A stretch of 14,664 bases of DNA from a virus (taxonomy: Duplodnaviria > Heunggongvirae > Uroviricota > Caudoviricetes). The number at the start of each line of letters is the position of its first letter. Position 1 is the stretch's first letter. Positions 1 to 13,089 of this stretch are shown piece by piece. The translations under genes were made by a program, and so were the position numbers. Below the pieces are notes generated by a model. The model had not been told where the DNA came from. It saw nothing but the letters and a program-made list of their open reading frames with translations, and did no database searches. The stretch is taken from positions 1 through 14,664 of the IMG/VR virus record IMGVR_UViG_2703718798_000012, one strand, 5' to 3'.

Positions 1-180
1 GTAACAACCGAACTGATAGTCTGCCAGCCCCGCCATAACAAGCTGGGTCAGTATTAACTGGCAGCGTTCACGTGAAAGGTACGTATTCTGCGCAATCTCC
101 CCGACTGTCGCCGGTTCGGTGACGCTTAATTCATTAAACACCACTCTGGCGGTTTCTGTCATATCCTGCTGTTTCAGCAT
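1..180 (-). CDS. Hypothetical protein, partial (N-terminal 60 codons; continues beyond window start)
   Basis: Reverse complement of 1..180 is open for 60 codons from ATG at 180..178 (MLKQQDMTETARVVFNELSVTEPATVGEIAQNTYLSRERCQLILTQLVMAGLADYQFGCY). Purine-rich GGGAA stretch just upstream. Not in the ORF track because it is unterminated. Confidence 0.4.
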   Translation of the reverse strand, partial: MLKQQDMTETARVVFNELSVTEPATVGEIAQNTYLSRERCQLILTQLVMAGLADYQFGCY

Positions 181-324: not shown

Positions 325-395
325 TTTAAGCTGTGTGGCGAAGTAACCACTCTTAACATACTGACATACTTTTTGCGGACCGCACTAATCATTTT

Positions 396-776: not shown

Positions 777-793
777 CAACTTTCTCCACAAAA

Positions 794-1789
794 TCAGGAC
801 AGCACACCAATCGCCAGTGCGCGATCGATAAAACGAAATATCAGCTCCAGTTGGGAACCATACTTCTCTTCAAATGCCACAGTATCCGCATGCAGTTCGT
901 CGTGGTGTTTTCTGCACAAAGGCAGCACAAAAAGGTCATGCGCTTTTGTCCCCATACCACCCTGACCGTGACCAATCAGATGATGCGGATCATCGGCTGG
1001 CTTTCCACAACACGCGCACGGCTGCGTCTTAACCCAGCGAGTGTACTTTTCATTAACCCAGCGACGACGTTTCGGGCGTAACATAAAAGACTCCGGCGAC
1101 TCCGGATCCACTTTCAGCGCCAGCACCTTTTTCGCTTTATCCCGGATGATGCTGGTGGCGGGAACCGAAGGCACAAGGTCACTTTCCCGGGTGACAGACG
1201 GCACAACAGGCTTCGGTAATCTCAGTGCCTTACGGGCTGCACTTTCCGGTAAGGCATCCGCCAGGTCATTACGAACCAGCCACCAGCACAGTTCCGGCAT
1301 TGTCACAACGTGACTGTCATCAAAACCAAGATCACGGCGCACAACAGACAACACCCAGCGGGCACAGTTATCCGTTGCCATTGCTTCCAGCCGTTCCGTG
1401 AACTGGTCACGGAGAAGATTGTCACAGTGCCAGCACAGACGGATTGCACCCGGCGCGAGCCGCATTGTGGTCATGTTCTCGCTGTGCCATCCGGAATGAG
1501 GCCACTGACAGCCCTTTTCACGAAGTAACCAGCTTTCAAGACATTCCACCCCACCAGCACGACGAATAACTGCCTCATTGCGGAACACGGCCCGCACAGC
1601 AGGATCATCCGCTAACGGTTGTGATGCCGCCGGAACGGCACCACTGGCAAAAGATGAATAACGTTCCGGCTCAGGCTCCAGCAGGACACGCCCCTGCATA
1701 AACAGGGGCATCAGCTCTGAGCCTGGTCTGAACAGTACGATCCCCATTCGCGGGGCAATTTCAGGAGTCAACAGTGCTCTCACGGTCAC
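794..1789 (-). CDS. Phage nin-region protein with C-terminal CxxC...HH...CxxHH motif (HNH/zinc-finger-like; recalled as DUF968/YdfU-like)
   Basis: 331-codon ORF. C-terminal segment WVKTQPCACCGKPADDPHHLIGHGQGG...LPLCRKHHDELHAD has paired Cys and His typical of HNH-type zinc motifs. Start uncertain: GTG at 1789 or GTG at 1783 with GAGG upstream; the first ATG (1747) lacks an SD. Family assignment is from memory. Confidence 0.6.
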   Translation of the reverse strand: MTVRALLTPEIAPRMGIVLFRPGSELMPLFMQGRVLLEPEPERYSSFASGAVPAASQPLADDPAVRAVFRNEAVIRRAGGVECLESWLLREKGCQWPHSGWHSENMTTMRLAPGAIRLCWHCDNLLRDQFTERLEAMATDNCARWVLSVVRRDLGFDDSHVVTMPELCWWLVRNDLADALPESAARKALRLPKPVVPSVTRESDLVPSVPATSIIRDKAKKVLALKVDPESPESFMLRPKRRRWVNEKYTRWVKTQPCACCGKPADDPHHLIGHGQGGMGTKAHDLFVLPLCRKHHDELHADTVAFEEKYGSQLELIFRFIDRALAIGVLS

Positions 1790-1834
1790 CTCAGCGAACG
1801 ATATTGCATGAACACAGGAGAAAAAATTCAGCCA

Positions 1835-2005
1835 TCACGCAGTAAACTCCTTCACCAGCGTTTCAAACTGGCTTACCTTGCCTTCCAGTTCCGCCACGCA
1901 ATCCACCAGCTCATCCACTGCCTTTTGTGTGCGGTGTTTTGCCTGCAGCAGATCACGAAGCGCCGGAGTAAGCTGCTTGCGGAGCGTATCCTTTGCCACG
2001 CTCAT
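1835..2005 (-). CDS. Small hypothetical protein (56 aa from ATG; 63 aa if GTG at 2026)
   Basis: ORF track 1835..2026. ATG at 2005 has a weak RBS; the upstream GTG at 2026 has AGGAG 10 nt upstream. Charged, helix-prone sequence; no recognisable domain. Confidence 0.4.
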   Translation of the reverse strand: MSVAKDTLRKQLTPALRDLLQAKHRTQKAVDELVDCVAELEGKVSQFETLVKEFTA

Positions 2006-2089
2006 TTTTTTCCATCTGTTCAGCACAACGAAGCATCTCCTGCGCCTGGCGACGAAGTTGTTCCGGTGAAACAGTGGCTGTTCTGTTAT

Positions 2090-3490
2090 TCAAAATAAAC
2101 GCTCCGCTTTACTGCCCGACATGCGGTTATTGCTGTATCTGCGCGGATTGCCCGGCGTCATGGGTGTGGAAAGAACCCGGGCACTCTCCTGGTCCACAGG
2201 CAGAAAATGCCCGTTATGAAAACGCCGGTAAATGGTACCCTGCGTGCCATTACGCTGTTTCGTGATGTTGATTTCTGCTATGCCTCTCGCCTGTGTCTCC
2301 GGGTTGTACACCTCATCCCTGTAAAGCATCAGAATGATGTCTGCATCCGCCTCTATTTCCCCGGAGTTTTTCAGGTCCGAGTTCATGGGGCGTTTATTGG
2401 GTCTGGATTCCACACCGCGGGAGAGCTGGCTCAGCGCTATCAGCGGGAAACCGCCGGATTTTGCCAGGCTTTTAAGTCCCTTTGAGATTTCCCCCACAGC
2501 AAGGTCGTGACGCCCCGTACTACGGGTTTTAATCAGGCCGAGGTAATCGACCACCACCAGCGCCGTTTCCGGGTGTTTCATCCGGTGGTGCCTCGTGGTT
2601 GCACATATCTCATCAATGGTCAGGTTTGCCTGGTCCACCATCCAGATATGACGCCCCGTCATTCGTCCCACGCCCTGTGAGAAACGCGCCCAGTCTTCAT
2701 CTTCAAAACGGGCAACAGACTTAAGACGGGATACCGGCATTCCCCCGGCAGCAGACACCATACGTTCACCAATCTGGATGTTCGCCATCTCCATGGTGAA
2801 CAGAAGCACGCCATGCCCCTGCTCAGTCACCTTGTCGATGATATCCAGCGCAAGTTCGGTTTTCCCCATCGAAGGACGAGCCGCAATGAATACCAGGTCG
2901 CCTGGCTCCATACCGCCCGTTTTTGCGTCCAGTTCATCAATACCGGTCATCAGTGCCCTGGATTTCTCCAGTCCCTGATTGCGGCATTCAACACGGTCGA
3001 CCACTTCCGGAAGGACATCATCAATGTGAACCGGCTGAATGACGCCCTTTCCGGTCGACAGTGAGGTCATCATGTTCTGCGCATCCTTCAGGGCATCCTC
3101 AGCTGCTTCACAGGTATGCGCATCACGTAAATTCTGTAATGCTTCGGTCAGTGTTTTTTCTGCATCGCGCAGTGCGGCATTGCGCCGCAGCGCTGCAACA
3201 TAGTGCTCCAGTGAAGACTTCGCCCAGGTTTTGCGTCCGGTGTCGGTAATCACCGGGGCAAGTTCCGGCATCTCATTGCACAGCAGTACGGGGTCAATGA
3301 CGCCGGATACACGGGCCTGTCTGCAAATTCCCGCGTAAATATCCCTGTACTGACGCACGAAAAAGACATCCGCCGGAAGTGTGGCCAGAATATCCATCAC
3401 TTCCGGATCAGCCCCACGCAGAAAAAACGCGCCAATGACAGCTCCTTCCAGGTCATCATTACGCCACGCCGGATTTGTCGGGTTTGTCAT
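2090..3490 (-). CDS. Replicative DNA helicase, DnaB family
   Basis: 466 aa from ATG 3490..3488, overlapping the upstream stop as ATGA. Walker A-like ARPSMGKTELALDI, and overall length and layout typical of DnaB-type helicases (e.g. phage P22 gene 12 class). Confidence 0.85.
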   Translation of the reverse strand: MTNPTNPAWRNDDLEGAVIGAFFLRGADPEVMDILATLPADVFFVRQYRDIYAGICRQARVSGVIDPVLLCNEMPELAPVITDTGRKTWAKSSLEHYVAALRRNAALRDAEKTLTEALQNLRDAHTCEAAEDALKDAQNMMTSLSTGKGVIQPVHIDDVLPEVVDRVECRNQGLEKSRALMTGIDELDAKTGGMEPGDLVFIAARPSMGKTELALDIIDKVTEQGHGVLLFTMEMANIQIGERMVSAAGGMPVSRLKSVARFEDEDWARFSQGVGRMTGRHIWMVDQANLTIDEICATTRHHRMKHPETALVVVDYLGLIKTRSTGRHDLAVGEISKGLKSLAKSGGFPLIALSQLSRGVESRPNKRPMNSDLKNSGEIEADADIILMLYRDEVYNPETQARGIAEINITKQRNGTQGTIYRRFHNGHFLPVDQESARVLSTPMTPGNPRRYSNNRMSGSKAERLF

Positions 3491-4377
3491 GCTGCCACAC
3501 CTCTGATATGCGCACGGTAGCTTTCCCAACCAAACACCAGGCAGTTACGCCCACCATCAGTAACGCGATCCACAATCCGTTCACCAATGGATTCCTTAAG
3601 CTGTTCAAACGTCAGGTTGCTGATCAAAATTGTCGGTAAAACGCTTTCGTAACGCGCATTTATGATTTCCTGCAGGATGGTTATCTCTGTAGGCGTGCCG
3701 AACTGCACACCAACCTCATCGATGATAAGCAGATCCAGCGATGCAAAATGATTAATCACTTCATCGTCAGTGCGCTCAGAGTTGTGGCGCCAGGTATTTT
3801 TCACCGCACGGGTAAGCCGCATCACATCCGTGATTTCTATGGTTGCCTGGTGGTGGCGAATAATATTTTTTGCCATTGATACAGCCAGGTGATTTTTCCC
3901 GGTACCACAATTGCCAATCATGACCATGCTGGTGCCTGCAGCGAGACATTTCTTCCAGGAAGCGGCATAGCGCTGACAGGCTTCAAGGTTTTTCTGTGCG
4001 TCAGTATTCACCGCCTGATAATTCTCAAACTCACAGTCCTGGAACCGGCGGGCAATACCGGCCTGATCGAGTAATTCACGAACCTTCAGGGCGCGTAATT
4101 CGTCATACACGCGGTCCAGCTCCTCACTGAGGCAGGACAGGCAACCGGACACCCGTTTGACAGCTTTCCCCCTTACATCCGGGCCCGTCAGCACATAGCG
4201 CGTGTATTTTCCGTGTTTCCCGCAGGACACCGTCTCAGTGCTTTGCACCCAATGCTCACAGCGCCACGGACGCTTTCCGCCACGGACAAATGCCAGCTCC
4301 TCTTCCAGGTCTGCCTTGCGGTTAAGTAACTGCGCTTTGTCGTGTTGCATGTGTTGTTTGTTCAGGAAATTAGTCAT
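3487..4377 (-). CDS. DnaC-like helicase loader (IstB-like AAA+ ATPase)
   Basis: 296 aa from the first ATG after the O stop (4377), with GGGAGG 6 nt upstream. Walker A GNCGTGKNHLA and Walker B LLIIDEVG. Confidence 0.8.
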   Translation of the reverse strand: MTNFLNKQHMQHDKAQLLNRKADLEEELAFVRGGKRPWRCEHWVQSTETVSCGKHGKYTRYVLTGPDVRGKAVKRVSGCLSCLSEELDRVYDELRALKVRELLDQAGIARRFQDCEFENYQAVNTDAQKNLEACQRYAASWKKCLAAGTSMVMIGNCGTGKNHLAVSMAKNIIRHHQATIEITDVMRLTRAVKNTWRHNSERTDDEVINHFASLDLLIIDEVGVQFGTPTEITILQEIINARYESVLPTILISNLTFEQLKESIGERIVDRVTDGGRNCLVFGWESYRAHIRGVAA

Positions 4378-4396
4378 TTTCACCCTCCCCACAAAA

Positions 4397-5308
4397 TCAC
4401 CAGTTGAAGTTCGTTGAGCCGTAGTCCTGTTCACTGAATCCCGAGATCGGGAGGCTTTTGCCCCGCCCACCTCCGGGGGCTGCTGGCTGTTGCCAGGATT
4501 CCTCGAAATGACGATCGGGTCCAAAGAACGTCGACGCCTGCTTCACGAACTGGGTACCGGTATTTCCAGAGACACGCACCCAGGCGGCATAGCGTTTCAC
4601 ACCGTTGAGCATGGTTTCGGGTGTCACACCTTCCCTGATTCGGGCTTTCCAGGCTTTGAAGGCTGCTGACTTGGAATTACCACCAGCACGTTTGGGATAT
4701 TCCTGCCAGGCCTGTTCAAATTCCGGTGAATATTCCTGTCTGGCAGAACGCGCTGGTGCAGACGCGTCAGCGGATGCGCCAATATCTTGCGGTTCATGTT
4801 TTGAATTTACTGGTGGTTCATGTTTTAAACCTTGTGGATCTGGGGTCAGATTCTGAAGGGTCAAACGCGTATTTTTGCCAGAATCTGAAGGGTCAAACAC
4901 ACCTGAACATACAGATTCTGACGGTTCAGATTTTGAAGGTTCAGAATCTGAAGGGTCACGTAATCCTGAAAGTCTGCGCTGCTGTTTCAGTTCTGCAACC
5001 TTATCCCGCTCAGTTCTGGCAAGCAGCTCAAGCCGATCAGCATTCAGATGATAAAGATTGGACGTATTACGGTTACCTTTGCGGCGTGACTGACGCGTCA
5101 GCCAGCCATCAGCCTCCAGTTCGGAGATTGCCGTTCTGACTGTACTTTCTCCCAACCCAAGCTGTCGGCATATGGTTTCAACACCTGGGTAGCACACCCC
5201 GTCATCATTCGAATAATCCGCCAAGCGCGCCATAATCATCAGTTTTGCACCTTTGATGCCATATGCTGCACATGCATCCCAGACATTACCTAGGATTTTG
5301 CTACTCAT
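4397..5308 (-). CDS. Replication initiator, O-like (N-terminal winged-helix-like domain, repeat-rich linker carrying origin iterons)
   Basis: 303 aa, GGGAGG 6 nt upstream of ATG 5308. Central DPSDSEPSKSEPSE-type peptide repeats are encoded by DNA direct repeats, the arrangement seen in lambda O/ori. Specific family not resolved. Confidence 0.65.
   Translation of the reverse strand: MSSKILGNVWDACAAYGIKGAKLMIMARLADYSNDDGVCYPGVETICRQLGLGESTVRTAISELEADGWLTRQSRRKGNRNTSNLYHLNADRLELLARTERDKVAELKQQRRLSGLRDPSDSEPSKSEPSESVCSGVFDPSDSGKNTRLTLQNLTPDPQGLKHEPPVNSKHEPQDIGASADASAPARSARQEYSPEFEQAWQEYPKRAGGNSKSAAFKAWKARIREGVTPETMLNGVKRYAAWVRVSGNTGTQFVKQASTFFGPDRHFEESWQQPAAPGGGRGKSLPISGFSEQDYGSTNFNW
4846..4960. 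repeat. Origin-like iteron array inside the O-like gene, with adjacent AT-rich segment and a second 12-bp direct repeat (4791..4826)
   Basis: About five copies of TCAGAWTCTGAAGGGTCA-like 18-20-mers (4846..4866, 4878..4898, 4912..4930, 4925..4945, 4941..4960). GGTTCATGTTTT repeated at 4791..4802 and 4815..4826 in an AT-rich stretch 4781..4830. Confidence 0.7.
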
Positions 5309-5529
5309 ACGGCACCTCCCAGACGCTTAAACATTTTTCCGGACTGAAACGCCACCAGCGGATAACTCAGGGTATGAGTACGTCCCTGAACCTGGCAGAC
5401 AACCTTCTGGCTTTCTATATTGACCAGGCAAACCCGCAGAACGTGTCCGTTGCTGGTGGTGAACCACTGCCCCACACGGGGGCAATGGTTGTATCGGTGA
5501 TACAGGAAATTAACGATGTGGCGGATCAT
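5305..5529 (-). CDS. Hypothetical small protein (74 aa), translationally coupled between rha3 and the O-like gene
   Basis: ATG overlaps the upstream stop as ATGA, and its own stop overlaps the O-like ATG as ATGA. No recognisable domain; occupies roughly the cII position. Confidence 0.4.
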   Translation of the reverse strand: MIRHIVNFLYHRYNHCPRVGQWFTTSNGHVLRVCLVNIESQKVVCQVQGRTHTLSYPLVAFQSGKMFKRLGGAV

Positions 5530-6089
5530 GGACGCACCTCCTTGTCAGAACCATTCAGCCTGGAATCAACAAGTGCAGCACCAAAAACAGCATCACCTAC
5601 ACGGTCGTACAGTTTGCTGGCCAGCGGAGATTCAACAGCCTTAAGCATTGGATAAAGCTGGCTTGTCCAGATTTGATGGATTTCACGCAAATGCAGGTAT
5701 ACGCCTCTGGCGTTTCGTGCGACAGCTGACATATCAGACGCATCGGCACCTGATAAACTCTTCTCCATCTGGTTAAAGGCATTGATGTATGCCTCTTTGA
5801 ACCGGGCAGCACGTTTACCAGTGAAGCCCATAGCAAGAAACGCAAAGCCGTCGCGGGTTATTTGATAGCAAGGAAGTTTGCGAGTACCGCCGTTGGGCTG
5901 GCGTACCAAAATTGATGTCTCCGCAAAATTGCGGGCACAAAACTCTGGAGAACAATCCAAAATGCGGATCTTTTTCAGAACATCGTCATGACGTTTAGAG
6001 AAGAAGTCAGCAACAGCCAAAGAAGATGTAACAGCCTGACCATCAACGATGGCAATTTCAGGTTGAGAGAGGGTTGGGAGAGTAGTCAT
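5526..6089 (-). CDS. Phage regulatory protein, Rha family (third tandem paralog)
   Basis: Conservative start ATG 6089..6087 gives 187 aa beginning MTTLPTLSQPEIAIVDGQAV, with the Rha-type motif FSKRHDDVLKKI and ITRDGFAFLAMGFTG. The frame stays open upstream to ATG 6389 (ORF track 5526..6389) and to a conserved ATG at 6230; true start uncertain. Confidence 0.6.
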   Translation of the reverse strand: MTTLPTLSQPEIAIVDGQAVTSSLAVADFFSKRHDDVLKKIRILDCSPEFCARNFAETSILVRQPNGGTRKLPCYQITRDGFAFLAMGFTGKRAARFKEAYINAFNQMEKSLSGADASDMSAVARNARGVYLHLREIHQIWTSQLYPMLKAVESPLASKLYDRVGDAVFGAALVDSRLNGSDKEVRP

Positions 6090-6162
6090 AGTGACAGCCC
6101 CGGTAGTCAGTTTTTTAGAAAACTCACCACATGGGACGCCAATCACAGAGGTGGTGAGACGT

Positions 6163-6243
6163 ACAGGGTTGGCGTTACCGGAGACTACCGAACCCGGCCC
6201 GACCGAAGTCGGCCCTGTACGCCCCACCATAATTTGGGCGTAG
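6163..6243 (-). promoter_or_regulatory. Conserved structured leader element, copy B, upstream of rha3
   Basis: Shares with copy A the 20-mer ACGCC-N2-AATTATGGTGGG and a 3' AACCCTGT block, and has a perfect hairpin CCGAC-UUCG-GUCGG (6199..6212) at the same offset (10 nt after the 12-mer). Confidence 0.5.
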
Positions 6244-6259
6244 TAATGCTCATGACACG

Positions 6260-6281
6260 AAAAAACCGCATGAGCGCGGTT
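6260..6281 (-). terminator. Terminator-like hairpin plus T-tract inside the rha2-rha3 spacer
   Basis: Minus-strand AACCGC-gctcat-GCGGTT followed by TTTT (6-T run in total), about 25 nt upstream of leader copy B. Confidence 0.4.
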
Positions 6282-6385
6282 ATGCTCAGTAATCAATTTC
6301 AGGACGCCAATCCCGGCACCCGTTTTATAAGGTGCCGGAACAGTGTAACGTCCCGGACTTGCAGAATCAATATGCTGGTGGCGCG

Positions 6386-6748
6386 TCATTGATGCACCTC
6401 CCGTTGATTACGACGGAACACGGAGTGACCCTGGACGGCTTCAGCCTCATGGAATGCTTCAATGCAGCTCTCGTAGTACCGCATGGTGCGCAGACTTAAC
6501 CCAAGCTGTAGCATCATCAGACCATCACGGGTGATGTAATAACCACGCACTGAATCGCCATAGGCGCGATAAGTGCCGGGAATAAAGTTGCGGGTGAGAA
6601 ATTCGCGTGAGCAGTTGAGATATTCGATTCGATCGATGATATTCTTATGCATGCGCTTAAAGTGACAGGCGACATACAGGGAGAATATAACGGCTCTGCC
6701 GTTGACGACCTCGATTTTGAGGTATGGATGTGCGGGGATCGTAGCCAT
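6386..6748 (-). CDS. Phage regulatory protein, Rha family (second tandem paralog)
   Basis: Conservative start ATG 6748..6746 with AGGAGG 9 nt upstream gives 120 aa (MATIPAHPYLKIEVVNGRAV...FKRMHKNIIDRI...ITRDGLMML). The frame stays open upstream to ATG 7240 (ORF track 6386..7240) and to a conserved ATG at 6886. Confidence 0.6.
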   Translation of the reverse strand: MATIPAHPYLKIEVVNGRAVIFSLYVACHFKRMHKNIIDRIEYLNCSREFLTRNFIPGTYRAYGDSVRGYYITRDGLMMLQLGLSLRTMRYYESCIEAFHEAEAVQGHSVFRRNQREVHQ

Positions 6749-6818
6749 TAAGGCAGCCTCCTGTAACAGTGGAACAGTTCCACCACCGGAGGTCTCAATC
6801 TCGCTGGTGGCGGACTGG

Positions 6819-6900
6819 ACAGGGTTGAGACTACCGGCGTTACAGGAAACCGGCGAACCTTTCGGTTCCCCTGCCCAGCCCACCATAATTCTGGCGTGCA
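6819..6900 (-). promoter_or_regulatory. Conserved structured leader element, copy A, upstream of rha2
   Basis: Same 20-mer and 3' block as copy B; perfect hairpin GAACC-GAAA-GGUUC (6855..6868) at the identical offset. Different stem and loop sequence from copy B with pairing preserved. Confidence 0.5.
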
Positions 6901-6910
6901 AGGACGCTGA

Positions 6911-6934
6911 CAACAAAAAAGACGCTGGCGCGTC
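6911..6934 (-). terminator. Terminator-like hairpin plus T-tract inside the rha1-rha2 spacer
   Basis: Minus-strand GACGC-gcca-GCGTC followed by TTTTTTGTTG, about 20 nt upstream of leader copy A. Confidence 0.4.
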
Positions 6935-7242
6935 ATTTGTCGCCTGTAACAATTCCGGGGTCTCACTCCCGATAGTGGATTTTGCCACTATATGTAAAGT
7001 GTGCCGCCGGAATTTAATTTTGTCAACGAGGTTAAATATAGAGTCGCTATGTTGGTGGCGCTTCGCACTCAACAAAATCACGACGAAACAACCACAGCGG
7101 GATGAAGCATTCATGCGGATAACCATCACGCAGGTAAATAACCCGCTGTGTTTCAGACTCCCAGCGTATAACGTGGACGCGACGCCCCCTTCCATCACGG
7201 AACCAGCGATTGAGTACTTGCATGTGTTACCTGTGAGCATAA

Positions 7243-7950
7243 TTACACCTGCCAGCCCAGCGCCTGGAACAACCCCATTTTCGGGTGATACCAGCGAGTA
7301 CCTCGTGGTTCTGCTTCACTCGTCATGCGATGAAAAGCAGACATGAAGGGTTCCACAGCAACAATAGCGCGACGCGATAACAATCCATCCGGCGTCATGA
7401 ACTCATGGGTGTCGGTAGGGATCTGATATGCGTTCACCAGATTGCGGCATTTCGCATCTGACATACCCGTTTTCGCCGCCAGCTGACGATAGCCTGCATA
7501 ACCATCGCGTATGGCGCCTCTTTTGATTTGTTCGACAGTTTCGGTAACGTGACTGACTTTTTCTTCTACCCGCTCAAGGCGTTTCTGCTGACGAACAGCT
7601 TCAAGAGCCATCGCGGCAACCATTTCGATTTCGCTCATTGGCTTGCGGATCTGTTCTTCCAGTTCGCGCCAGCGGTCTACCAGACGGGCTGTGAATTCAG
7701 GGCAAAGCTGTGCGACAACAATGATGCTGTCGCGTTTGCCTTGTTCGCCTTCAAACAGATAATGCTCGTGTTGAACTTTAAACCCTAAGTTATTGATTCT
7801 TTCGGAAACCTCAATTTGAGGAGATCGGACAACACCACCTTTAGCTAATGTTTCAATAGTGCGTTTCACATTGTCATGACGCTTACCCACCAGCTCTGCG
7901 ATCTCAACGCTGGTCATGGATGCTTTATCGGTAAAAATTGTTGTATTCAC
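7243..7950 (-). CDS. Phage regulatory protein, Rha family (first tandem paralog, with C-terminal extension)
   Basis: 235 aa. GTG start at 7950 with AGGAG 7 nt upstream, overlapping the cro-like stop (GTGA). N-terminal SVEIAELVGKRHDNVKRTIETL is the characteristic Rha motif (recalled Pfam Phage_pRha pattern). Confidence 0.7.
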   Translation of the reverse strand: MNTTIFTDKASMTSVEIAELVGKRHDNVKRTIETLAKGGVVRSPQIEVSERINNLGFKVQHEHYLFEGEQGKRDSIIVVAQLCPEFTARLVDRWRELEEQIRKPMSEIEMVAAMALEAVRQQKRLERVEEKVSHVTETVEQIKRGAIRDGYAGYRQLAAKTGMSDAKCRNLVNAYQIPTDTHEFMTPDGLLSRRAIVAVEPFMSAFHRMTSEAEPRGTRWYHPKMGLFQALGWQV

Positions 7951-8210
7951 TGTTTATCTCCTTCGCACACTCCATCTTCTGTGTGCGCTAAACTTGGGTG
8001 TGGGAAAAGCTCCGGTAGATCAGGACGAAATTCATACGCCTGGACTTTCCCATCGACCGCCTTAACCAGAGACGGAACAAATTCAGGAGAAATTTTTTTC
8101 TTCCCATTCAGCCAGTCGCAAATTGTTGACTGCGCGCGACCACAACGCCTAGCCAGAGCAATCTGGCTTCCCGCAATATCTACAGCCTTGGCTATACCTT
8201 CATTTTTCAT
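7947..8210 (-). CDS. Cro-like HTH transcriptional regulator
   Basis: 87 aa from ATG 8210..8208 with GGAGG 5 nt upstream (ORF track starts 9 codons earlier at a GTG). HTH segment GSQIALARRCGRAQSTICDWLNGKK; divergent from the CI-like gene across an operator-rich spacer. Confidence 0.7.
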   Translation of the reverse strand: MKNEGIAKAVDIAGSQIALARRCGRAQSTICDWLNGKKKISPEFVPSLVKAVDGKVQAYEFRPDLPELFPHPSLAHTEDGVCEGDKQ

Positions 8211-8235
8211 ATCGACCTCCAACCTGATTCCATTC

Positions 8236-8264
8236 ACTATAGCGATTGATTAAAGCGATTGCAA
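8236..8264 (-). promoter_or_regulatory. PR-like sigma70 promoter for the cro-like operon, with two direct CAATCGCT repeats in the spacer
   Basis: Minus-strand -35 TTGCAA (8264..8259), 17-nt spacer, -10 TATAGT (8241..8236). Spacer contains CAATCGCT twice; the 13-mer CTATAGCGATTGA (8237..8249) recurs at 9152..9164. Confidence 0.5.
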
Positions 8265-8282
8265 TGTACGGGAAAGCGGTTT

Positions 8283-8308
8283 GTGTATATATCGCTAAGG
8301 CGATACAC
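8283..8308. promoter_or_regulatory. Inverted-repeat operator candidate upstream of the CI-like gene (PRM region)
   Basis: Core TATCGC-taag-GCGATA (8290..8305), extended by flanking GTGTAT / ATACAC arms. Lies about 30-50 nt upstream of the CI start; promoter hexamers not confidently placed. Confidence 0.4.
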
Positions 8309-8333
8309 TAAAAGGGCAGAAAAAGGAGGACTT

Positions 8334-9038
8334 ATGAGCTTTTCAGACAGGCTACAGTTAGCTATGACTATCCGCGGATACTCGCAGGGAAAACTGGCCA
8401 GAGAGGTTGGCATGGCTCAATCGAGCGTAAATAAACTGGTTAATGGTGCCACAGGCTCCAGGAAAGTTGTGGAGATAGCCAATACCCTGAACGTGCGCCC
8501 CGAGTGGCTATCGTACGGTGTTGGTCCTATGACCCCAGAAGAAAGCACATCCTGCAATCCGACACCACAGGTATCATATTCCCCGCTGGAAAATGATAAG
8601 GATATTTTTCGTGTGGAAGTCCTGGATATCGCTGCCAGCGCGGGACCAGGAACATTCCTTGTTTCAGATTTTGCAGAAACGGTCCATGCTATAGAATTTT
8701 CACATGACGCCGCAAGACGTCTGTTCTGTAGCAGGCCAGCAAATATCATAAAGATGATAACAGTTGATGGCGACAGCATGGCTCCTACTCTGTGTGCAGG
8801 AGATCAGGTGTTTGTCGACGTATCCGTCAGAAATTTTGAAACTGACGGTATCTATATTTTTATTTTTGGGCACACTTTCCATATCAAACGCCTGCAAATG
8901 CAAGGGATGCAACTTGCTGTTATATCAGACAATCCGGCCTACAAGGAATGGTTTATAAGTGAATCAGCTGAAGAACATCTATTCATAATGGGGAAAGTTC
9001 TCATTCATCAGTCAATCCAGTATAACAGGGTCGGATAA
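8334..9038 (+). CDS. CI-like prophage repressor (N-terminal HTH, C-terminal S24/LexA-type autopeptidase)
   Basis: 234 aa from ATG 8334 with AAAAGGAGGA upstream. HTH LAREVGMAQSSVNKLVNG; Ala-Gly cleavage-type site in AASAGPG; peptidase Ser in VDGDSMAPT and Lys in FHIKRL. Implies RecA/SOS-inducible repressor. Confidence 0.85.
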   Translation: MSFSDRLQLAMTIRGYSQGKLAREVGMAQSSVNKLVNGATGSRKVVEIANTLNVRPEWLSYGVGPMTPEESTSCNPTPQVSYSPLENDKDIFRVEVLDIAASAGPGTFLVSDFAETVHAIEFSHDAARRLFCSRPANIIKMITVDGDSMAPTLCAGDQVFVDVSVRNFETDGIYIFIFGHTFHIKRLQMQGMQLAVISDNPAYKEWFISESAEEHLFIMGKVLIHQSIQYNRVG

Positions 9039-9051
9039 GTCAACATCACCG

Positions 9052-9090
9052 GCAGCTGTATTGCGCAGCTGCTCTACTTTCCTGTATCTC
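9052..9090 (+). terminator. Possible terminator after the CI-like gene
   Basis: 7-bp stem GCAGCUG / CAGCUGC (9052..9058, 9066..9072) with 7-nt loop, followed by a pyrimidine-rich tail UCUACUUUCCUGUAUCUC rather than a clean U-tract. Confidence 0.3.
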
Positions 9091-9151
9091 AACTCCCTAC
9101 GTATCGTCTCATTTCTCTCATAATCTGTTCTTTGCTGCCCAAAATGCATAG

Positions 9152-9189
9152 CTATAGCGATTGACATAACCAAACGCTTTGGCTATTGT
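9152..9189 (+). promoter_or_regulatory. PL-like promoter with operator for the plus-strand accessory/early-left operon
   Basis: -35 TTGACA (9161..9166), 17-nt spacer, -10 TATTGT (9184..9189). Operator 13-mer CTATAGCGATTGA (9152..9164) identical to the PR copy and overlapping the -35; includes the palindrome GCTATAGC. Confidence 0.45.
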
Positions 9190-9214
9190 AAAATTAAAAC
9201 AACAGGAGGCTCAT

Positions 9215-9286
9215 ATGAAGCATGCAGTTAAGGTGATGGATGAAATTCAGCACAAATACAAGAAAGCGGCTCGCTGCTTGGAATGA
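9215..9286 (+). CDS. Leader micro-ORF (23 aa) coupled to the tandem-HTH gene
   Basis: AGGAGG 9204..9209, 5-nt spacer, ATG 9215; encodes MKHAVKVMDEIQHKYKKAARCLE. Its TGA overlaps the ATG of the next gene (ATGA), which has no SD of its own. Confidence 0.3.
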   Translation: MKHAVKVMDEIQHKYKKAARCLE

Positions 9287-9885
9287 TCTATTCCTACATG
9301 TCAGAAAACGGAGCAGAAAGTGAGAGGGTTTATAATGCAATCAGATGCCTGATGCGTTCCCTGCAAAAAACAGAAGAAACTGCATCAATTTTTGCAGAAA
9401 AACTATGTGAGGCAAAAGCTATGGTTTCGCATGGTCACTTTTTTGGAAAAATCCGTGCCCAACGTGAAGCCTGCGGCTTGACGACCACCGAACTTGCCAA
9501 ACTGCTTGATCTCGATGAAGAGATCATCCTGCAATGGGAGAGCGGAGAGTTCGAACCGACCATCAGCATGCTTATCCCCCTGGCAAACGTCATTGGGTGC
9601 GATCCGCTTTCTTTGCTGGATGAAAAAGATAGCGCGTCTGTTATTCGCGTAAATGCGCCTGAAGTCTACGTGGAAAGTATTGGCGCACGCATCAAAAGCG
9701 CACGTAAAAAACTGGGCTTAACGGAAGCTGATCTTGCCCGCATGATTAATACCTATAGCGACCCCATAAACGACTGGGAATGCGGCATCTGTGAAGTTCC
9801 TGCTGATCAGATAGTGCCACTGGCCAGTGCGCTTAATTGTGACCTGATGTGGTTGTTAACGGGAAAATCAGAAGCAAAGGAGTAG
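9283..9885 (+). CDS. Tandem HTH (two XRE-type domains) DNA-binding protein
   Basis: 200 aa. Two canonical HTH_XRE-like segments (GKIRAQREACGLTTTELAKLLDLDEEIILQWESGEFEP and GARIKSARKKLGLTEADLARMINTYSDPINDWECG). First gene of the PL-like operon. Confidence 0.7.
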   Translation: MIYSYMSENGAESERVYNAIRCLMRSLQKTEETASIFAEKLCEAKAMVSHGHFFGKIRAQREACGLTTTELAKLLDLDEEIILQWESGEFEPTISMLIPLANVIGCDPLSLLDEKDSASVIRVNAPEVYVESIGARIKSARKKLGLTEADLARMINTYSDPINDWECGICEVPADQIVPLASALNCDLMWLLTGKSEAKE

Positions 9886-9890
9886 CAACA

Positions 9891-10091
9891 ATGACTGGTA
9901 ATATCCATGATAAGTATGAAGGCTTATGCCTAGCACCAGATTCCTTCGCAAACAATATCCATGATTTATTATGCGCAGTTGTCGTATTACAAATGTCAGA
10001 CAACGACGCAATAAAAAGAACAGGTGATGAAGTTCTTGAATTTGCACGTTGCTATGCTGAAGCAGCAGCTGAAAAAGAACTATCCAGTTAA
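9891..10091 (+). CDS. Hypothetical protein (66 aa)
   Basis: ATG 9891 with AAAGGAG 8 nt upstream (ORF track starts 14 codons earlier at a GTG inside the preceding gene). No recognisable domain. Confidence 0.5.
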   Translation: MTGNIHDKYEGLCLAPDSFANNIHDLLCAVVVLQMSDNDAIKRTGDEVLEFARCYAEAAAEKELSS

Positions 10092-10173
10092 ATAGAACAA
10101 GTCATCTCCAGATACTATATTACGGCTTAATCGCCGGGGATTATCACACACTTAATCCACAGGAGGTTTTATT

Positions 10174-10287
10174 ATGACTTTTATAAAACATAAGGCATCA
10201 CACAAAACAGCCTGCCTTATTGCACAACACGGGAAAAATTACATGCATATTGCCTGCTTGTTTCTGCGTAAAGCATACGGGAGATAA
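10174..10287 (+). CDS. Small ORF (37 aa) with strong SD
   Basis: AGGAGG 10161..10166, 7-nt spacer, ATG 10174; ends TAATAATG abutting the next start. Encodes MTFIKHKASHKTACLIAQHGKNYMHIACLFLRKAYGR. Below the ORF-track size cutoff. Confidence 0.3.
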   Translation: MTFIKHKASHKTACLIAQHGKNYMHIACLFLRKAYGR

Positions 10288-10289
10288 TA

Positions 10290-10472
10290 ATGCATCAGAA
10301 AACAGCAGAACACGAACAAACCAGAGTATTGCTGACCATCAAAAACGGGAAAGTAATATTAATTCGTCATGTTCATGACGATGAATTTGTAGGAAATCTT
10401 TCAACATTCCTGTTTATTGCAGAAAAGGCAGGATATGACGTTATTGCACCAGCAGATGAAGATGAGGAATAA
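10290..10472 (+). CDS. Hypothetical protein (60 aa, acidic C-terminus)
   Basis: GGGAG 6 nt upstream of ATG 10290. No recognisable domain. Confidence 0.5.
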   Translation: MHQKTAEHEQTRVLLTIKNGKVILIRHVHDDEFVGNLSTFLFIAEKAGYDVIAPADEDEE

Positions 10473-10477
10473 ATTTC

Positions 10478-11050
10478 ATGCAATACGCTGAATTCCAGGC
10501 TGAAGCAACAGCCAATGGTATACAAACAGGCAGTATGACTATTGATTATCACGACGCCATACGCCGTCTGGATGCTGGAGAATTCGATACTCCTAATGTG
10601 CGAGGTTTACGTATCCTTCAGTGTCTCGCGCAAGCTGACGAAGCAGGATTACTGGGAAAACTTCCGGTTGAGATGAAGGTTGCCCAGTGGCGATGGTTGT
10701 ATGTGACGACATTCATCAACGAAGAAGAAGACAAGAACGGCACAATTGATGTCCCGAATGAACACGGAACAACAGATCGCGCCGTAATATATAACGGGAA
10801 GCATGGAGTTATGACTATATACCCTAGTCCCATTCGGTTTGCCTTACAGCAGTATATTGAATGGAATTTAATTCAAACATATGGCGAAGCTGAGGGAATG
10901 GGAAGAGCGCTGTTTCTTTATCAGAAAATGCTCACCACTTCCCCTGATAAAGGTTTCATCCTTTCAGATATAGGTCGAGAAGGGCTTGAACTCCTTCTGG
11001 ATGAAATGATTAACGACCTGAATACTCATGGTATGCCAGAAGGCCAGTGA
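10478..11050 (+). CDS. Hypothetical protein (190 aa), orphan
   Basis: GAGGAA 7 nt upstream of ATG 10478. No motif I recognise. Confidence 0.6.
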   Translation: MQYAEFQAEATANGIQTGSMTIDYHDAIRRLDAGEFDTPNVRGLRILQCLAQADEAGLLGKLPVEMKVAQWRWLYVTTFINEEEDKNGTIDVPNEHGTTDRAVIYNGKHGVMTIYPSPIRFALQQYIEWNLIQTYGEAEGMGRALFLYQKMLTTSPDKGFILSDIGREGLELLLDEMINDLNTHGMPEGQ

Positions 11051-11065
11051 CACATTAAATATTAA

Positions 11066-11090
11066 GAAGAATATAACTCTTCCGTTTTTT
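11066..11090 (+). terminator. Weak terminator-like hairpin with T-tract after the 190-aa gene
   Basis: 5-bp AU-rich stem GAAGA / UCUUC with 7-nt loop, then CG and a 6-T run (11085..11090). Confidence 0.3.
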
Positions 11091-11103
11091 ACTAACCGTT
11101 TAT

Positions 11104-11211
11104 ATGAAAAGCGACCGTGAATTAAGCAGAGTAAAACTGCTTTTAATCCTTGCCACAGTACTGACACTAACAGAAATCATTATTCTCTTTATTGCGCTGT
11201 CTGTCAGTTAA
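11104..11211 (+). CDS. Small hydrophobic peptide (35 aa, single predicted TM helix)
   Basis: ATG 11104 to TAA 11209..11211 encodes MKSDRELSRVKLLLILATVLTLTEIIILFIALSVS. No clear SD. Confidence 0.3.
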   Translation: MKSDRELSRVKLLLILATVLTLTEIIILFIALSVS

Positions 11212-11234
11212 AAATATCGGGATACCACATACCA

Positions 11235-11423
11235 ATGAGACTGTATTTCACAATAGTAATTTTACTGGCAATTATCGCATGCATTTACGGATTACTCGTT
11301 CCGTTCCTTATATCCATGAAGGATACGAGAGCAGTTATTTCTGGCTTTGCACTGGCGTTTCTGACCCCGCCCTGCATTTATGCCATTTACAAGGGTCTTT
11401 CTTTCACTAAGGATAAAAAATGA
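11235..11423 (+). CDS. Small membrane protein (62 aa, two predicted TM helices)
   Basis: Hydrophobic stretches LYFTIVILLAIIACIYGLLVPFLI and AVISGFALAFLTPPCIYAIY. Stop overlaps the next ATG (ATGA). Confidence 0.5.
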   Translation: MRLYFTIVILLAIIACIYGLLVPFLISMKDTRAVISGFALAFLTPPCIYAIYKGLSFTKDKK

Positions 11424-12247: not shown

Positions 12248-12287
12248 CTTATATGCCCGGCAGGCCGCCGGGCTAAGGGAAAAGCAG

Positions 12288-12659
12288 ATGAACACCCATA
12301 ATGCCCAACCGCAAATAATGAACTATGACCCGAATCTGACGTCATGCGGACGCATGGCAAAACAAACCGTTCGATTAACTTTCGGGTTATGGGAATACCG
12401 CGAAACATTCGAAGTTACTGTCGGCGGCAATCTGACCGGACTGGATGTTATCAGTTGCGCTATTGAAAGCCTGTACGCAACACTGCCTTATGAAGAAGTC
12501 GAGGATGAGCGCACAGGGGGAACAGATATCATGGCCACCATTAATATTGGCGAACTGATATGTCAGGATGAAGACCTGTCCGGAGAGAGCTGGCTTGCTG
12601 GAATGCTTGTAGCTGCAGAAATTATCAGTATTGAACCCGCTACAAATATACGGCTCTGA
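12288..12659 (+). CDS. Hypothetical protein (123 aa), acidic
   Basis: First ATG after the upstream hairpin, with AAGGGA 7 nt upstream (ORF track starts at 12216, overlapping the preceding gene). No recognisable domain. Confidence 0.5.
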   Translation: MNTHNAQPQIMNYDPNLTSCGRMAKQTVRLTFGLWEYRETFEVTVGGNLTGLDVISCAIESLYATLPYEEVEDERTGGTDIMATINIGELICQDEDLSGESWLAGMLVAAEIISIEPATNIRL

Positions 12660-12690
12660 AGTTCTCGCTATTCAGAGAACAGGAGAAAAA

Positions 12691-12933: not shown

Positions 12934-12936
12934 AGA

Positions 12937-13071: not shown

Positions 13072-13089
13072 AAATTTTATGAGGTTGGC

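Follow-up and report, generated by a model that had tools for sequence, protein, structure and literature searches.

The two structured leaders that precede the genes rha2 and rha3 in a virus-derived stretch of 14,664 nucleotides (positions 1 to 14,664 of IMG/VR record IMGVR_UViG_2703718798_000012, hereafter the window) are, judged from sequence and predicted folding, both examples of an RNA switch already described in phages, in which an IsrK/seqA small RNA is followed by a C4/CI antisense RNA. Very probably, both leaders are full antisense immunity cassettes (IsrK–C4) built like P4 seqA–CI–seqC, with the same logic as the a1b1–c4–a2b2 arrangement of P1/P7, and each is placed so that it would silence the Rha-type regulator gene 3' of it. 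The two cassettes appear to stand in tandem in the early-right operon of a lambdoid E. coli prophage, and they carry different recognition words. Because the IsrK–C4 type is already known from P4, P1/P7, and Gifsy-1, the elements are real but not new, and the locus opens no new element class. The switch itself has been published, including copies in lambdoid prophages; the part that is specific to this locus is the tandem pair with different words.

Identification of the cassettes

Rfam searches of the minus strand, on which all of the features described here lie, place isrK (RF01394) at 6991..6915 (copy A, 63.7 bits) and 6335..6259 (copy B, 60.1 bits), and the C4 antisense RNA (RF01695) at 6890..6803 (copy A, 82.4 bits) and 6234..6147 (copy B, 82.3 bits), with model positions 1-87 of 87 covered in both C4 matches. 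The curated gathering thresholds are 50 bits for isrK and 45 bits for C4. A third family, c4-a1b1 (RF03163, threshold 46.7 bits), matches the 5' part of both isrK copies below threshold, at 34.5 bits in module A (7004..6952) and 24.7 bits in module B. No family besides these three matches at E ≤ 0.1. A C4 pattern with 24 specified bases is found twice in the window, compared with 0.00 expected from 200 shuffles. A purpose-built isrK covariance model, seeded with copy A and P4 and excluding copy B (MAFFT shifted the copy B terminator by two columns), missed copy B at E < 0.01, which the Rfam model recovers.

The sequence-only reading had divided each leader into a terminator hairpin, a conserved block, and a tetraloop hairpin, and had not recognized a described element. 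All of these motifs are present on the minus strand: the terminators (6934..6915 and 6281..6260), the block ACGCC-N2-AATTATGGTGGG (6897..6879 and 6241..6223, starting 22-23 nt after the terminator hairpin), and the perfect 5-bp hairpins (6868..6855 and 6212..6199), which start exactly 10 nt after the block. The division into three separate parts does not survive, as the 20-mer and the tetraloop hairpin belong to one 88-nt RNA, and the apparent novelty is lost with the assignment to RF01394 and RF01695, known in P4, P1/P7, and Gifsy-1. In terms of these families, the terminator is that of isrK, the 20-mer comprises the leader and the 5' side of the C4 outer stem, and the tetraloop hairpin is hairpin 1 of C4. 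The label of leader, or spacer, is incomplete, in that each unit has its own predicted sigma-70-type promoter and lies inside a long ORF that is annotated as coding. The suggestion that a riboregulator acts on each rha paralog and on the replication genes beyond it appears to have been essentially right.

Some components had escaped that reading, namely the 3' strand of the outer stem, the second inner hairpin, two more isrK hairpins, the promoters, and the antisense targets. It had also passed over the location of both “spacers” within long ORFs (284 aa and 287 aa).

Organization of the two modules

Module A begins with a predicted promoter (7026..6998) comprising a -35 element TTGACA (7026..7021), a 17-nt spacer, and a weak -10 element CACACT (7003..6998) that ends 6 nt before the 5' end of isrK-A, the equivalent of P4 seqA. 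The parts of isrK-A are a 5' hairpin, a hairpin 2 that contains an A·C mismatch and bears a1 (TGAGAC, 6965..6960) in its loop, a linker with b1 (GTTACAGG, 6950..6943), and the terminator GACGC-GCCA-GCGTC plus T6 (6934..6915, hairpin 6934..6921), which a terminator scan also found. In both modules, 24 nt separate isrK from C4.

Each C4 RNA is 88 nt long, with a 17-bp outer stem around a tetraloop hairpin and a second hairpin (the 12-nt loop of which is the word b'), followed by an 8-nt junction that holds the word a'. In C4-A, the outer stem pairs 6885..6869 with 6824..6808 and encloses hairpin 1 (GAACC-GAAA-GGUUC, 6868..6855), hairpin 2 (6854..6833, with b' UUUCCUGUAACG at 6849..6838), and the junction a' (AGUCUCAA, 6832..6825); the 3' tail is CCAGC. 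The region immediately downstream (6798..6758) is complementary to both words: a2 (TTGAGAC, 6798..6792) is a 7-nt exact complement of a', and b2 (GTTACAGGA, 6767..6759) is a 9-nt exact complement of b' that overlaps the Shine-Dalgarno sequence (AGGAGG) of rha2. This gene (6748..6386, ATG at 6748..6746) encodes a 120-aa protein with a Phage_pRha domain (Pfam PF09669, E = 1.4e-8) and would be the one under module A control.

Module B repeats this layout. Its predicted promoter (6370..6342; -35 TTGATT at 6370..6365, 17-nt spacer, -10 TACACT at 6347..6342) directly follows the rha2 stop codon, and an identical promoter occurs in many relatives (e.g., loci L010, L035, and L049). In isrK-B, a1 (TTGGCGT, 6310..6304) again lies in the hairpin 2 loop, b1 (GAUUACUG, 6294..6287) pairs with b' through a duplex that includes two G-U wobbles, and the terminator AACCGC-GCTCAT-GCGGTT with its T-run TTTT (6281..6260, hairpin 6281..6264) was likewise found by the terminator scan. 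The outer stem of C4-B (6229..6213 paired with 6168..6152) encloses hairpin 1 (CCGAC-UUCG-GUCGG, 6212..6199), hairpin 2 (6198..6177, with b' GUUCGGUAGUCU at 6193..6182), and the junction a' (AACGCCAA, 6176..6169), and the 3' tail is CCUCU instead of CCA. The complementary region downstream (6142..6098) contains a2 (TTGGCGT, 6142..6136), a 7-nt exact complement of a', and b2 (GACTACCG, 6108..6101), an 8-nt exact complement of b' that abuts a Shine-Dalgarno-like GGGG run. The gene predicted to be controlled by module B is rha3 (6089..5526, ATG at 6089..6087; 187 aa, PF09669, E = 3e-27), after which come genes for replication (an HTH_36 initiator, a DnaC-like loader, and a DnaB-like helicase).

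Recognition words and their targets

The words that C4 exposes, b' in the hairpin 2 loop and a' in the junction, are complementary both to a2/b2 downstream and to a1/b1 in the upstream isrK. In module A, the matches extend over 9 nt (b'/b2), 8 nt (b'/b1), 7 nt (a'/a2), and 6 nt (a'/a1). In module B, they extend over 8 nt (b'/b2) and 7 nt (both a'/a2 and a'/a1), with b1 reached via the two wobbles.

The same relationship holds across the family. For 67 distinct loop/junction combinations, a match of at least 7 nt was found in the locus's own flanks in 76-96% of cases, compared with 3-7% in the flanks of other loci. For the downstream targets a2/b2 the own-flank figure is 85-88% (vs. 3-7% for other loci), and the upstream copies a1/b1 are present in 76-96%. 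The targets hold fixed positions in relatives: +22..24 (a2) and +53..55 (b2) after the C4 core, and approximately -80 (a1) and -64 (b1); b2 ends 9-11 nt 5' of the start codon and mostly includes GGA or GGAG. The words themselves are diverse, with 69 combinations among 120 loci. In one tandem pair that is orthologous to that of the window (L047), all of the words have changed in concert, an indication that the tandem layout is still under selection.

There is also complementarity between the modules. The C4-A segment CCGGUAGUC matches the b2 of rha3 (GACUACCGG) over 9 nt, and b' of C4-B is able to pair with the Shine-Dalgarno region of rha2 (GGAGGCUGCC) if G-U pairs are included. Unconstrained duplex energies for b' of C4-A are -19.9 kcal/mol on the cognate site vs. 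-9.4 kcal/mol on the noncognate one, and for b' of C4-B they are -18.7 kcal/mol on its own site vs. -18.2 kcal/mol on the module A Shine-Dalgarno region, values that for such GC-rich segments are not decisive. It is tempting to view the tandem cassettes as serial, separately addressable gates, with the cross-complementarity forming a cascade that times expression of the Rha paralogs and the replication genes, and with translated RNA read-through as the corollary for the Ash domain discussed below. We offer this as a speculation and consider it rather doubtful. If it were true, the Ash portion that is widely annotated in Rha/Ant/Bro-type proteins would be no folded domain but the translation product of two RNA genes, and would be kept open for ribosomes that override RNA immunity.

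Conservation of the folds

For both copies of C4, the minimum-free-energy fold is the family structure (z = -5.07 for A and -6.02 for B). Relatives were gathered using a pattern that fixes the hairpin 2 stem and several outer-stem bases, so those positions cannot show covariation, and the sample is phylogenetically nonindependent. With this in mind, 99.6% of cells are paired among 80 distinct C4 relatives and double changes occur in 16 of 27 pairs, values that none of 500 shuffles reached. For isrK, 96% of cells are paired, with double changes in 12 of 17 pairs.

Selection on pairing in paralogous structured RNAs, as proposed from the two copies alone, is supported by the relatives: all five pairs of hairpin 1 show compensatory changes (99.8% of cells paired), as do four of the five pairs of the isrK terminator (100% paired). 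The assignment of the hairpin 1 loops to extra-stable classes proved sound as well, since 68 of the 80 distinct relatives have a UNCG or GNRA tetraloop at this position. The predicted promoter upstream of isrK is conserved in 62 distinct relatives, with the same -35/17/-10 layout and the consensus cTTGac-17-TAtAgT.

Reading frames through the RNAs

Both cassettes are traversed by long ORFs. ORF A (7240..6386, 284 aa) crosses isrK-A and C4-A in a single frame that continues into rha2, and its residues 85-172 match Phage_ASH (Pfam PF10554). Because its 5' third overlaps, in another frame, a DUF4222 gene (7223..7047), its true start is uncertain. The eta-like ORF B (6389..5526, 287 aa) spans promoter B, isrK-B, C4-B, a2, and b2 without a change of frame and continues into rha3, in frame with the rha3 ATG at 6089, and its residues 15-110 match Phage_ASH. 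The ATG of ORF B (6389) overlaps the rha2 stop codon as ATGA, with a Shine-Dalgarno sequence (GGGAGG) 7 nt upstream. The Phage_ASH scores for the two ORFs are 54.6 and 39.3 bits. In PGAP annotation, the homolog of ORF B is a 286-aa Rha family regulator and that of ORF A is a pseudogene “missing N-terminus.”

Among distinct relatives, the frame of the AUG within C4 has no stop for 100 or more codons downstream in 61% (vs. 7% for other frames) and for 60 or more codons upstream in 48% (vs. 5-11%). This AUG is in frame with the downstream start in 20 of 32 relatives of the 18-nt loop-plus-junction class and in 8 of 20 of the 15-17-nt classes; given this difference between length classes, selection for an exact in-frame fusion has mixed support. 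The absence of stop codons in the C4-AUG frame is a stronger signal than the exact in-frame relation. The peptide encoded across hairpin 1 differs between the two copies (EPKGS vs. PTSVG), and the Ash profile also matches the obsolete “cI ORF137” of P4 precisely where the CI RNA lies. By analogy with P4 eta, translation through the region is likely, and it would be part of the RNA switch and no alternative to it.

Alternative explanations

The view that the region is merely protein-coding, forming the N-terminal “Ash” domain (PF10554) of two Rha-family regulators with the RNA-like features incidental, draws on the Phage_ASH matches of both long ORFs (54.6 and 39.3 bits), on the open C4-AUG frame in relatives, far more often open than the other two, and on the annotation of homologs as coding, without RNA features, by PGAP and phage depositors. 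Against it, compensatory changes in the stems alter the encoded peptide (the EPKGS/PTSVG difference being an example), the variable words covary with four flanking sites and not with any protein feature, and the Ash profile extends to the P4 “cI ORF137” at the position of the CI RNA; in addition, the Gifsy-1 study found the nucleotide sequence of orf45 to be conserved and its amino-acid sequence not. We reject a purely coding explanation, which is highly improbable in the face of the compensatory stem changes, the covariation of words and targets, and the P4 precedent. We give close to no credence to the other role suggested in the sequence-only reading, that of a nut/put-like antitermination site (or, in a related form, a cis attenuator or riboswitch) that, by modifying RNA polymerase or sensing a ligand, would allow read-through into rha and the replication genes. 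An intrinsic terminator inside the operon followed by a stable structure would fit such a role, and alternative cis structures of the read-through transcript matter in Gifsy-1. However, a boxA search of the minus strand from 5900 to 7300 gave no boxA-like match in either leader, and matches in the window as a whole were no commoner than chance; together with the lack of any further Rfam match at E ≤ 0.1, this led us to reject a nut/put-like element. Moreover, the variable loops match flanking RNA sites and form no conserved ligand pocket, and the homologous RNAs of P4 and P1/P7 act in trans as immunity factors.

Two further possibilities accept the cassettes as IsrK–C4 elements and differ on what they do. 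That they are inherited relics with no regulatory role in the prophage could be argued at minimum for module A, with its weak -10, its mismatch in isrK hairpin 2, an rha2 product of only 120 aa, and the PGAP pseudogene flag on a homolog. Yet complementarity is retained among all five interacting sites of each module, both copies of C4 fold perfectly and score as high as any relative, and the tandem pair L047 has changed all of its words in concert; we regard decay as quite unlikely. A main role in conflict between elements (immunity against satellites of the P4 type or against heteroimmune phages with shared words, or cross-talk with either) is unlikely too. Barquist et al. suggested that lambdoid IsrK–C4 may protect against predatory satellites, and the extreme diversity of the words (the 69 combinations at 120 loci) resembles that of the heteroimmunity determinants of P1/P7. 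But a matching satellite is absent from the window, and the words of every cassette match sites in its own flanks, at the ribosome-binding site of the gene that it precedes, so self-regulation is certainly encoded and defense would come in addition to it.

Proposed mechanism

We infer promoter activity, termination, processing, Rho polarity, and translation of the long ORFs in this prophage from the homologous systems. On the model of P4, P1/P7, and Gifsy-1, the internal promoters would fire constitutively in the lysogen, and most transcripts would end at the isrK terminator, yielding the IsrK small RNA. Read-through RNA would be processed to stable C4, the 5' end of which would be made by RNase P. 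Pairing of C4 with a2 and b2 would block translation of rha, and the untranslated RNA would be exposed to Rho, so that the coupled replication genes downstream would be kept off despite the internal promoters. IsrK, which bears a1 and b1, may form base pairs with C4 (or with the C4 region) and so tip the system toward expression, as has been shown for Gifsy-1. Upon induction, transcripts from the repressor-controlled upstream promoter would be translated through the long in-frame eta-like ORF (the “Ash” region), and ribosomes traversing isrK and C4 would make expression insensitive to the RNA immunity.

Processing of this kind is documented for the homologs: C4 and CI RNA are RNase P substrates, and in P1/P7 and P4 a longer transcript is cut at the 5' end by RNase P to give a stable trans-acting immunity RNA of ~70-80 nt (PMC5499578). 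In the window, both C4 copies have the hairpin-like shape of such a substrate, with a CCA tail in copy A and CCU in copy B. PMC10111431 summarizes how, in P4, translation of the transcript from the upstream promoter suppresses immunity-dependent termination. It should be noted that emphasis differs among the published systems, with Rho termination stressed in P4, translational repression in P1, and activation by IsrK in Gifsy-1.

Distribution and annotation

By BLAST alone, matches to the 1.8-kb region occur in 1,434 of 5,426 complete E. coli genomes, and matches to the 291-nt module A in 191 phage records, mostly of Stx phages. Depositors and PGAP annotate these cassettes as protein only (“Rha/Ant/Ash/hypothetical”), and one homolog has been flagged as a pseudogene because of its RNA-derived “N-terminus.” The main value of the present identification is in annotation and interpretation. 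It explains the “Ash domain of unknown function” found beside cI in Stx phages, and it predicts an RNA layer over the antirepressor-like Rha and the replication genes, which bears on induction and hence on Shiga-toxin release. With its two distinct sets of words, the tandem pair also offers a handy natural system for studying the specificity and cross-talk of the switch.

Comparison with known systems

In E. coli lambdoid/Stx “Eru” phages, a gene for Rha with an “Ash” domain neighbors the repressor and replication genes (PMC8951638); in that paper, Ash is treated as a protein domain of unknown function and the embedded RNAs go unmentioned. The “IsrK-C4 immunity system” is already named in PMC3632133, with lambdoid prophages among its carriers.

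The immI region of P1/P7 (a1 b1 – c4 – a2 b2 – icd – ant, as given in the cited papers) encodes the C4-family RNA on which the Rfam model was built. As in the window, words a' and b' have their pairing targets around the following gene's ribosome-binding site, copies a1/b1 lie upstream, and differences in the words determine heteroimmunity; c4 of P1/P7 blocks the ribosome-binding site of ant (PMC12197685). However, the genes controlled in P1 are icd and ant, not rha, and the separate c4-a1b1 family of Rfam stays below threshold in the window.

For Gifsy-1, Hershko-Shalev et al. (2016; PMC4825925) reported Hfq binding by IsrK, partial read-through of its terminator, trans-activation of the downstream gene, and the processed RNA STnc1160; IsrK and STnc1160 are highly transcribed in lysogens (10.1101/787010). 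The published description of isrK–orf45/STnc1160–anrP shares with the window a lambdoid context and a leaky IsrK terminator followed by a structured region that gives rise to processed STnc1160. In addition, orf45 begins at AUGs just after isrK and is followed by an antirepressor-like gene, and IsrK is complementary to the downstream region. There is one copy in Gifsy-1 and there are two in the window, and the Gifsy-1 paper stresses trans-activation by IsrK and never names the downstream RNA C4. Furthermore, orf45 is a separate 45-codon ORF coupled to anrP, whereas its equivalents in the window (46 and 47 codons) are fused in-frame to rha2 and rha3.

The resemblance to P4 extends to the reading frame. 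PMC10111431 sets out the eta/kil/CI/seqA logic of P4 and its detection by the Rfam C4 and isrK models. In our own search, Rfam finds isrK at 8692..8615 and C4 at 8507..8420 of P4, plus c4-a1b1, and one reading frame, opening upstream of the internal promoter with the eta ATGs (8767-8761), passes through both RNAs and reaches the kil ATG (8365). The P4 nested-gene paper is reportedly that of Forti, from 1999. In P4 and in the window, a promoter, isrK/seqA with its terminator, the C4/CI RNA, and targets on the next ribosome-binding site follow in the same order and with the same spacing logic. From b2 up to the start codon, P4 and module A have nearly the same sequence, the kil ATG being preceded by TTCACAGGAggctgccatcATGGCT, compared with GTTACAGGAggctgccttaATGGCT in module A, and Phage_ASH matches both P4 and the window. 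The eta frame, which passes through seqA and CI into kil, has the arrangement of the module B ORF. The differences are that P4 is a satellite with the PLE promoter, whereas the window has tandem cassettes in a lambdoid early-right operon; that the isrK-to-C4 spacer is 107 nt, not 24 nt, and the recognition words differ; and that the gene downstream encodes a 65-aa Kil in P4 and a Rha-domain protein of 120 or 187 aa in the window.

Two isrK–C4 cassettes in an early operon

The sequence-only reading had described a terminator hairpin, a conserved 20-mer, and a tetraloop hairpin before both rha2 and rha3, and we confirmed every motif on the minus strand: the hairpin plus T-run at 6934..6915 and 6281..6260 (both also flagged by a simple terminator scan), the ACGCC-N2-AATTATGGTGGG block at 6897..6879 and 6241..6223, and, after a gap of exactly 10 nt in both copies, the perfect 5-bp tetraloop hairpins at 6868..6855 (GAAA loop) and 6212..6199 (UUCG loop). 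The observation is fragmentary, and the pieces are parts of larger units. When the window was searched with Rfam at curated thresholds (50 bits for isrK, 45 bits for C4 antisense RNA), there were four matches, all on the minus strand: isrK (RF01394) at 6991..6915 (63.7 bits) and 6335..6259 (60.1 bits), and C4 antisense RNA (RF01695) at 6890..6803 (82.4 bits) and 6234..6147 (82.3 bits). C4 follows isrK by 24 nt in both cassettes (A before rha2, B before rha3). Relaxing the threshold adds only sub-threshold matches to RF03163 (the Rfam family “a1, b1 targets of C4 antisense RNA”), which lie in the 5′ portion of both isrK copies. In thermodynamic folding, each C4 taken alone returns the family structure (z = −5.1 and −6.0). 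The “terminator” is that of isrK, the “20-mer” combines a short leader with one strand (5′) of the 17-bp outer stem of C4, and the “tetraloop hairpin” is C4 inner hairpin 1. We are highly confident in the identification as isrK plus C4 cassettes.

The region is a lambdoid prophage early-right operon, and its best complete-genome match is an E. coli chromosome (94.2% identity). On the minus strand lie a YdaS/Cro-like HTH protein (8237..7947), rha1 (7950..7243), a DUF4222 gene of 58 aa (7223..7047; Pfam E = 8e-16) between rha1 and cassette A, rha2 (120 aa, 6748..6386) after cassette A, and rha3 (187 aa, 6089..5526) after cassette B. Beyond rha3 come a small ORF, an HTH_36 replication initiator, a DnaC-like loader, a DnaB-like helicase, and a DUF968 protein. 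A CI-type repressor (200 aa) is divergent, at 9283..9885 on the plus strand. It has two separate HTH_3/HTH_19 matches (residues 57-108 and 134-197), which is unusual, as a single HTH accompanied by a peptidase or dimerisation domain is the norm for such repressors.

Antisense words and their targets

When each C4 copy is divided according to the Rfam structure, two segments are exposed: b′, the 12-nt loop of hairpin 2 (UUUCCUGUAACG in A, GUUCGGUAGUCU in B), and a′, the 8-nt junction after hairpin 2 (AGUCUCAA in A, AACGCCAA in B). Both segments of both modules have exact complements downstream on the minus strand. In module A, these are a2 (TTGAGAC, 6798..6792) and b2 (GTTACAGGA, 6767..6759), the latter overlapping the Shine-Dalgarno sequence (AGGAGG) 10 nt ahead of the rha2 ATG; in module B, they are a2 (TTGGCGT, 6142..6136) and b2 (GACTACCG, 6108..6101), the latter abutting GGGG 11 nt ahead of the rha3 ATG. 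Complements also occur upstream, within isrK of both modules and again on the minus strand: a1 (TGAGAC, 6965..6960) and b1 (GTTACAGG, 6950..6943) in A, and a1 (TTGGCGT, 6310..6304) and b1 (GAUUACUG, 6294..6287) in B, where b1 pairs fully with b′ only if two G-U wobbles are allowed.

It should be noted that the 9-mer GGUAGUCUC is present in both C4s at different sites, running from the 3′ strand of hairpin 2 into a′ in C4-A (6827..6835) and falling at the b′ loop in C4-B (6181..6189). Because this 9-mer is shared, CCGGUAGUC of C4-A is perfectly complementary to the rha3 b2 site (GACUACCGG, 6100..6108). In addition, b′ of C4-B can pair with the rha2 Shine-Dalgarno region GGAGGCUGCC (6752..6763) using G-U pairs (−18.2 kcal/mol). 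With such partial cross-complementarity, cross-talk between the cassettes is possible.

Conservation among relatives

A degenerate C4 pattern, matched by both window copies but by none of the shuffles, recovered 120 viral-contig loci carrying 69 distinct loop/junction combinations. For the 67 combinations with full flanks, we counted matches of at least 7 nt: b′ matched its own downstream flank in 85% of cases vs. 6.6% for flanks of other loci, and a′ in 88% vs. 3.2%; upstream, own flanks matched in 76% and 96% of cases vs. 6% and 3% for those of other loci. Target positions are fixed (a2 at +22..24, b2 at +53..55, b1 near −64, a1 near −80), b2 ends 9–11 nt before the start codon, and GGA/GGAG usually lies within it.

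A covariance model seeded with the two window copies and phage P4 found 108 C4 copies in 100 sources. The 80 distinct sequences compared are not phylogenetically independent, and the pattern used to collect them held the hairpin-2 stem and a few bases of the outer stem constant. Among them, 99.6% of cells are paired, and both partners have changed in 16 of 27 pairs, including all five of the tetraloop hairpin; none of the shuffled and slid controls came near the observed pairing or covariation. The earlier remark on extra-stable tetraloops describes a property of the family, hairpin-1 loops being UNCG in 37 and GNRA in 31 of the 80. An isrK model located 78 copies upstream of C4, with the terminator helix 100% paired and compensatory changes in four of its five pairs, again among loci that are not independent. 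In 62 distinct relatives, a sigma-70-type promoter (cTTGac, 17 nt, TAtAgT) precedes the isrK 5′ end at a constant spacing; its window counterparts are TTGACA-17-CACACT (module A) and TTGATT-17-TACACT (module B).

Tandem or multiple C4 copies recur (L047, L049, L007, L077, L092, and L083 among the comparison sequences). In L047 (12730..13700, minus), an orthologous tandem pair has the 656-nt C4-to-C4 spacing and backbone of the window, and all recognition words differ, with a1, b1, a2, and b2 changed in concert in both cassettes. It offers a clean case of specificity switching in nature. L007 has three C4-like copies at 1324..1745, two of which (1324-1412 and 1413-1501) abut with no isrK between them and precede one complete isrK–C4 cassette. 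In the second of these, the hairpin-2 stem is broken and a′ (AGUCUCAA) is identical to that of C4-A. The array may represent decoys or duplication debris.

Long open reading frames and the “Ash domain”

Cassette A is contained in an ORF of 284 aa and cassette B in one of 287 aa, and both ORFs stay in frame as they enter rha2 and rha3, respectively. Pfam Phage_ASH (PF10554) matches these ORFs exactly across isrK, C4, a2, and b2 (window 6060..6347 and 6725..6988, minus; the corresponding stretches elsewhere are 3331..4775 in L121, another comparison sequence, and 8168..8584 in P4), aligning to the translation of these elements rather than to a distinct part of the protein. For the most part, the “Ash domain” may be RNA gene sequence translated as if it were protein. 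In PGAP annotation of the homologous region, the homolog of long ORF B is a 286-aa Rha regulator, that of ORF A (the rha2 homolog) is a pseudogene “missing N-terminus,” and there are no RNA features.

Among relatives, the frame from the AUG within C4 is open for at least 100 codons downstream in 61% of cases (vs. 7% for the other two frames) and for at least 60 codons upstream in 48% (vs. 5%–11%). The ATG of the module B long ORF overlaps the rha2 stop (ATGA), with GGGAGG 7 nt upstream; this is, in sequence terms, a textbook coupled start. In module A the frame is open, but the DUF4222 gene overlaps it on the 5′ side in another frame, which leaves its start ambiguous. The overlap occupies the 5′ third of the 284-aa ORF (region 7047..7240, minus). 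A peptide common to both long ORFs, RHQH-DS, is encoded just upstream of the promoter, in A overlapping the end of DUF4222. In L013, a P4-like satellite relative (3882..4913, minus), the 343-aa ORF running through isrK and C4 and the 75-aa ORF that begins at the start codon following b2 are in different frames; thus, the way genes nest or overlap behind the cassette differs from lineage to lineage. Out-of-frame starts of this kind were seen in about 10 cases.

Proposed operation and significance

With the parts, their order, pairing potentials, and covariation established, we infer the operating steps from P4, P1/P7, and Gifsy-1. The internal promoters would be active in the lysogen, and most transcripts would end at the isrK terminator. 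RNase P would process read-through RNA to C4, which would occlude the rha ribosome-binding site, and ensuing Rho termination would keep the downstream replication genes silent. IsrK, carrying the same target words, could counteract C4 or remodel the read-through RNA. Once the upstream promoter is derepressed, ribosomes on the long frame would override RNA control. By analogy with these systems, the full scheme probably applies to this prophage in detail.

Rfam already lists the element, and publications describe it: as the “IsrK-C4 immunity system,” lambdoid prophage copies included (PMC3632133), at the Gifsy-1 IsrK locus (PMC4825925), through C4 and isrK profiles that detect CI and seqA inside Bro-network genes (PMC10111431), and in an APSE-phage study that detected the two RNAs and matched a′ and b′ to sequence preceding an adjacent BRO gene. 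Such cassettes are very widespread; 1434 of 5426 complete E. coli genomes have a match to the 1.8-kb region, and 191 phage records have one to module A. Locus-specific features are modest (two tandem cassettes with different words, each before a Rha paralog). The feature is real, correctly observed, and of a known kind, and its practical value lies in correcting annotation and explaining the “Ash domain.”

Comparison with P1/P7 and P4

The window layout, a1 b1 – c4 – a2 b2, is that of P1/P7 and is equivalent to seqA – CI – seqC of P4, in which Rfam places isrK at 8692..8615 and C4 at 8507..8420. The P4 spacer between isrK/seqA and CI RNA is 107 nt and contains CGCCAGATTATGGTGTGG (8573..8590, minus), which closely resembles the conserved block ACGCCAGAATTATGGTGGG but sits 66 nt upstream of the true 5′ end of CI; it looks like what an insertion or duplication left of a C4 5′ half. 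The obsolete “cI ORF137” annotation of P4 matches Phage_ASH exactly over CI RNA, and P4 epsilon belongs to a different family.

It is P4 that explains the open frame through the window RNAs. There, one frame runs from ATGs at 8767-8761 via both RNAs to the ATG at 8365, giving ORFs of 197–199 and 65 codons, the sizes reported for eta and kil (Forti et al. 1999). The sequence before the kil ATG is almost the same as that before rha2. Kil is translated on read-through only, whereas full-length Eta is made only from a regulated promoter located upstream, its translation being coupled to the preceding gene and preventing termination (PMC10111431). Judged by its sequence, the window fits this eta/kil pattern.
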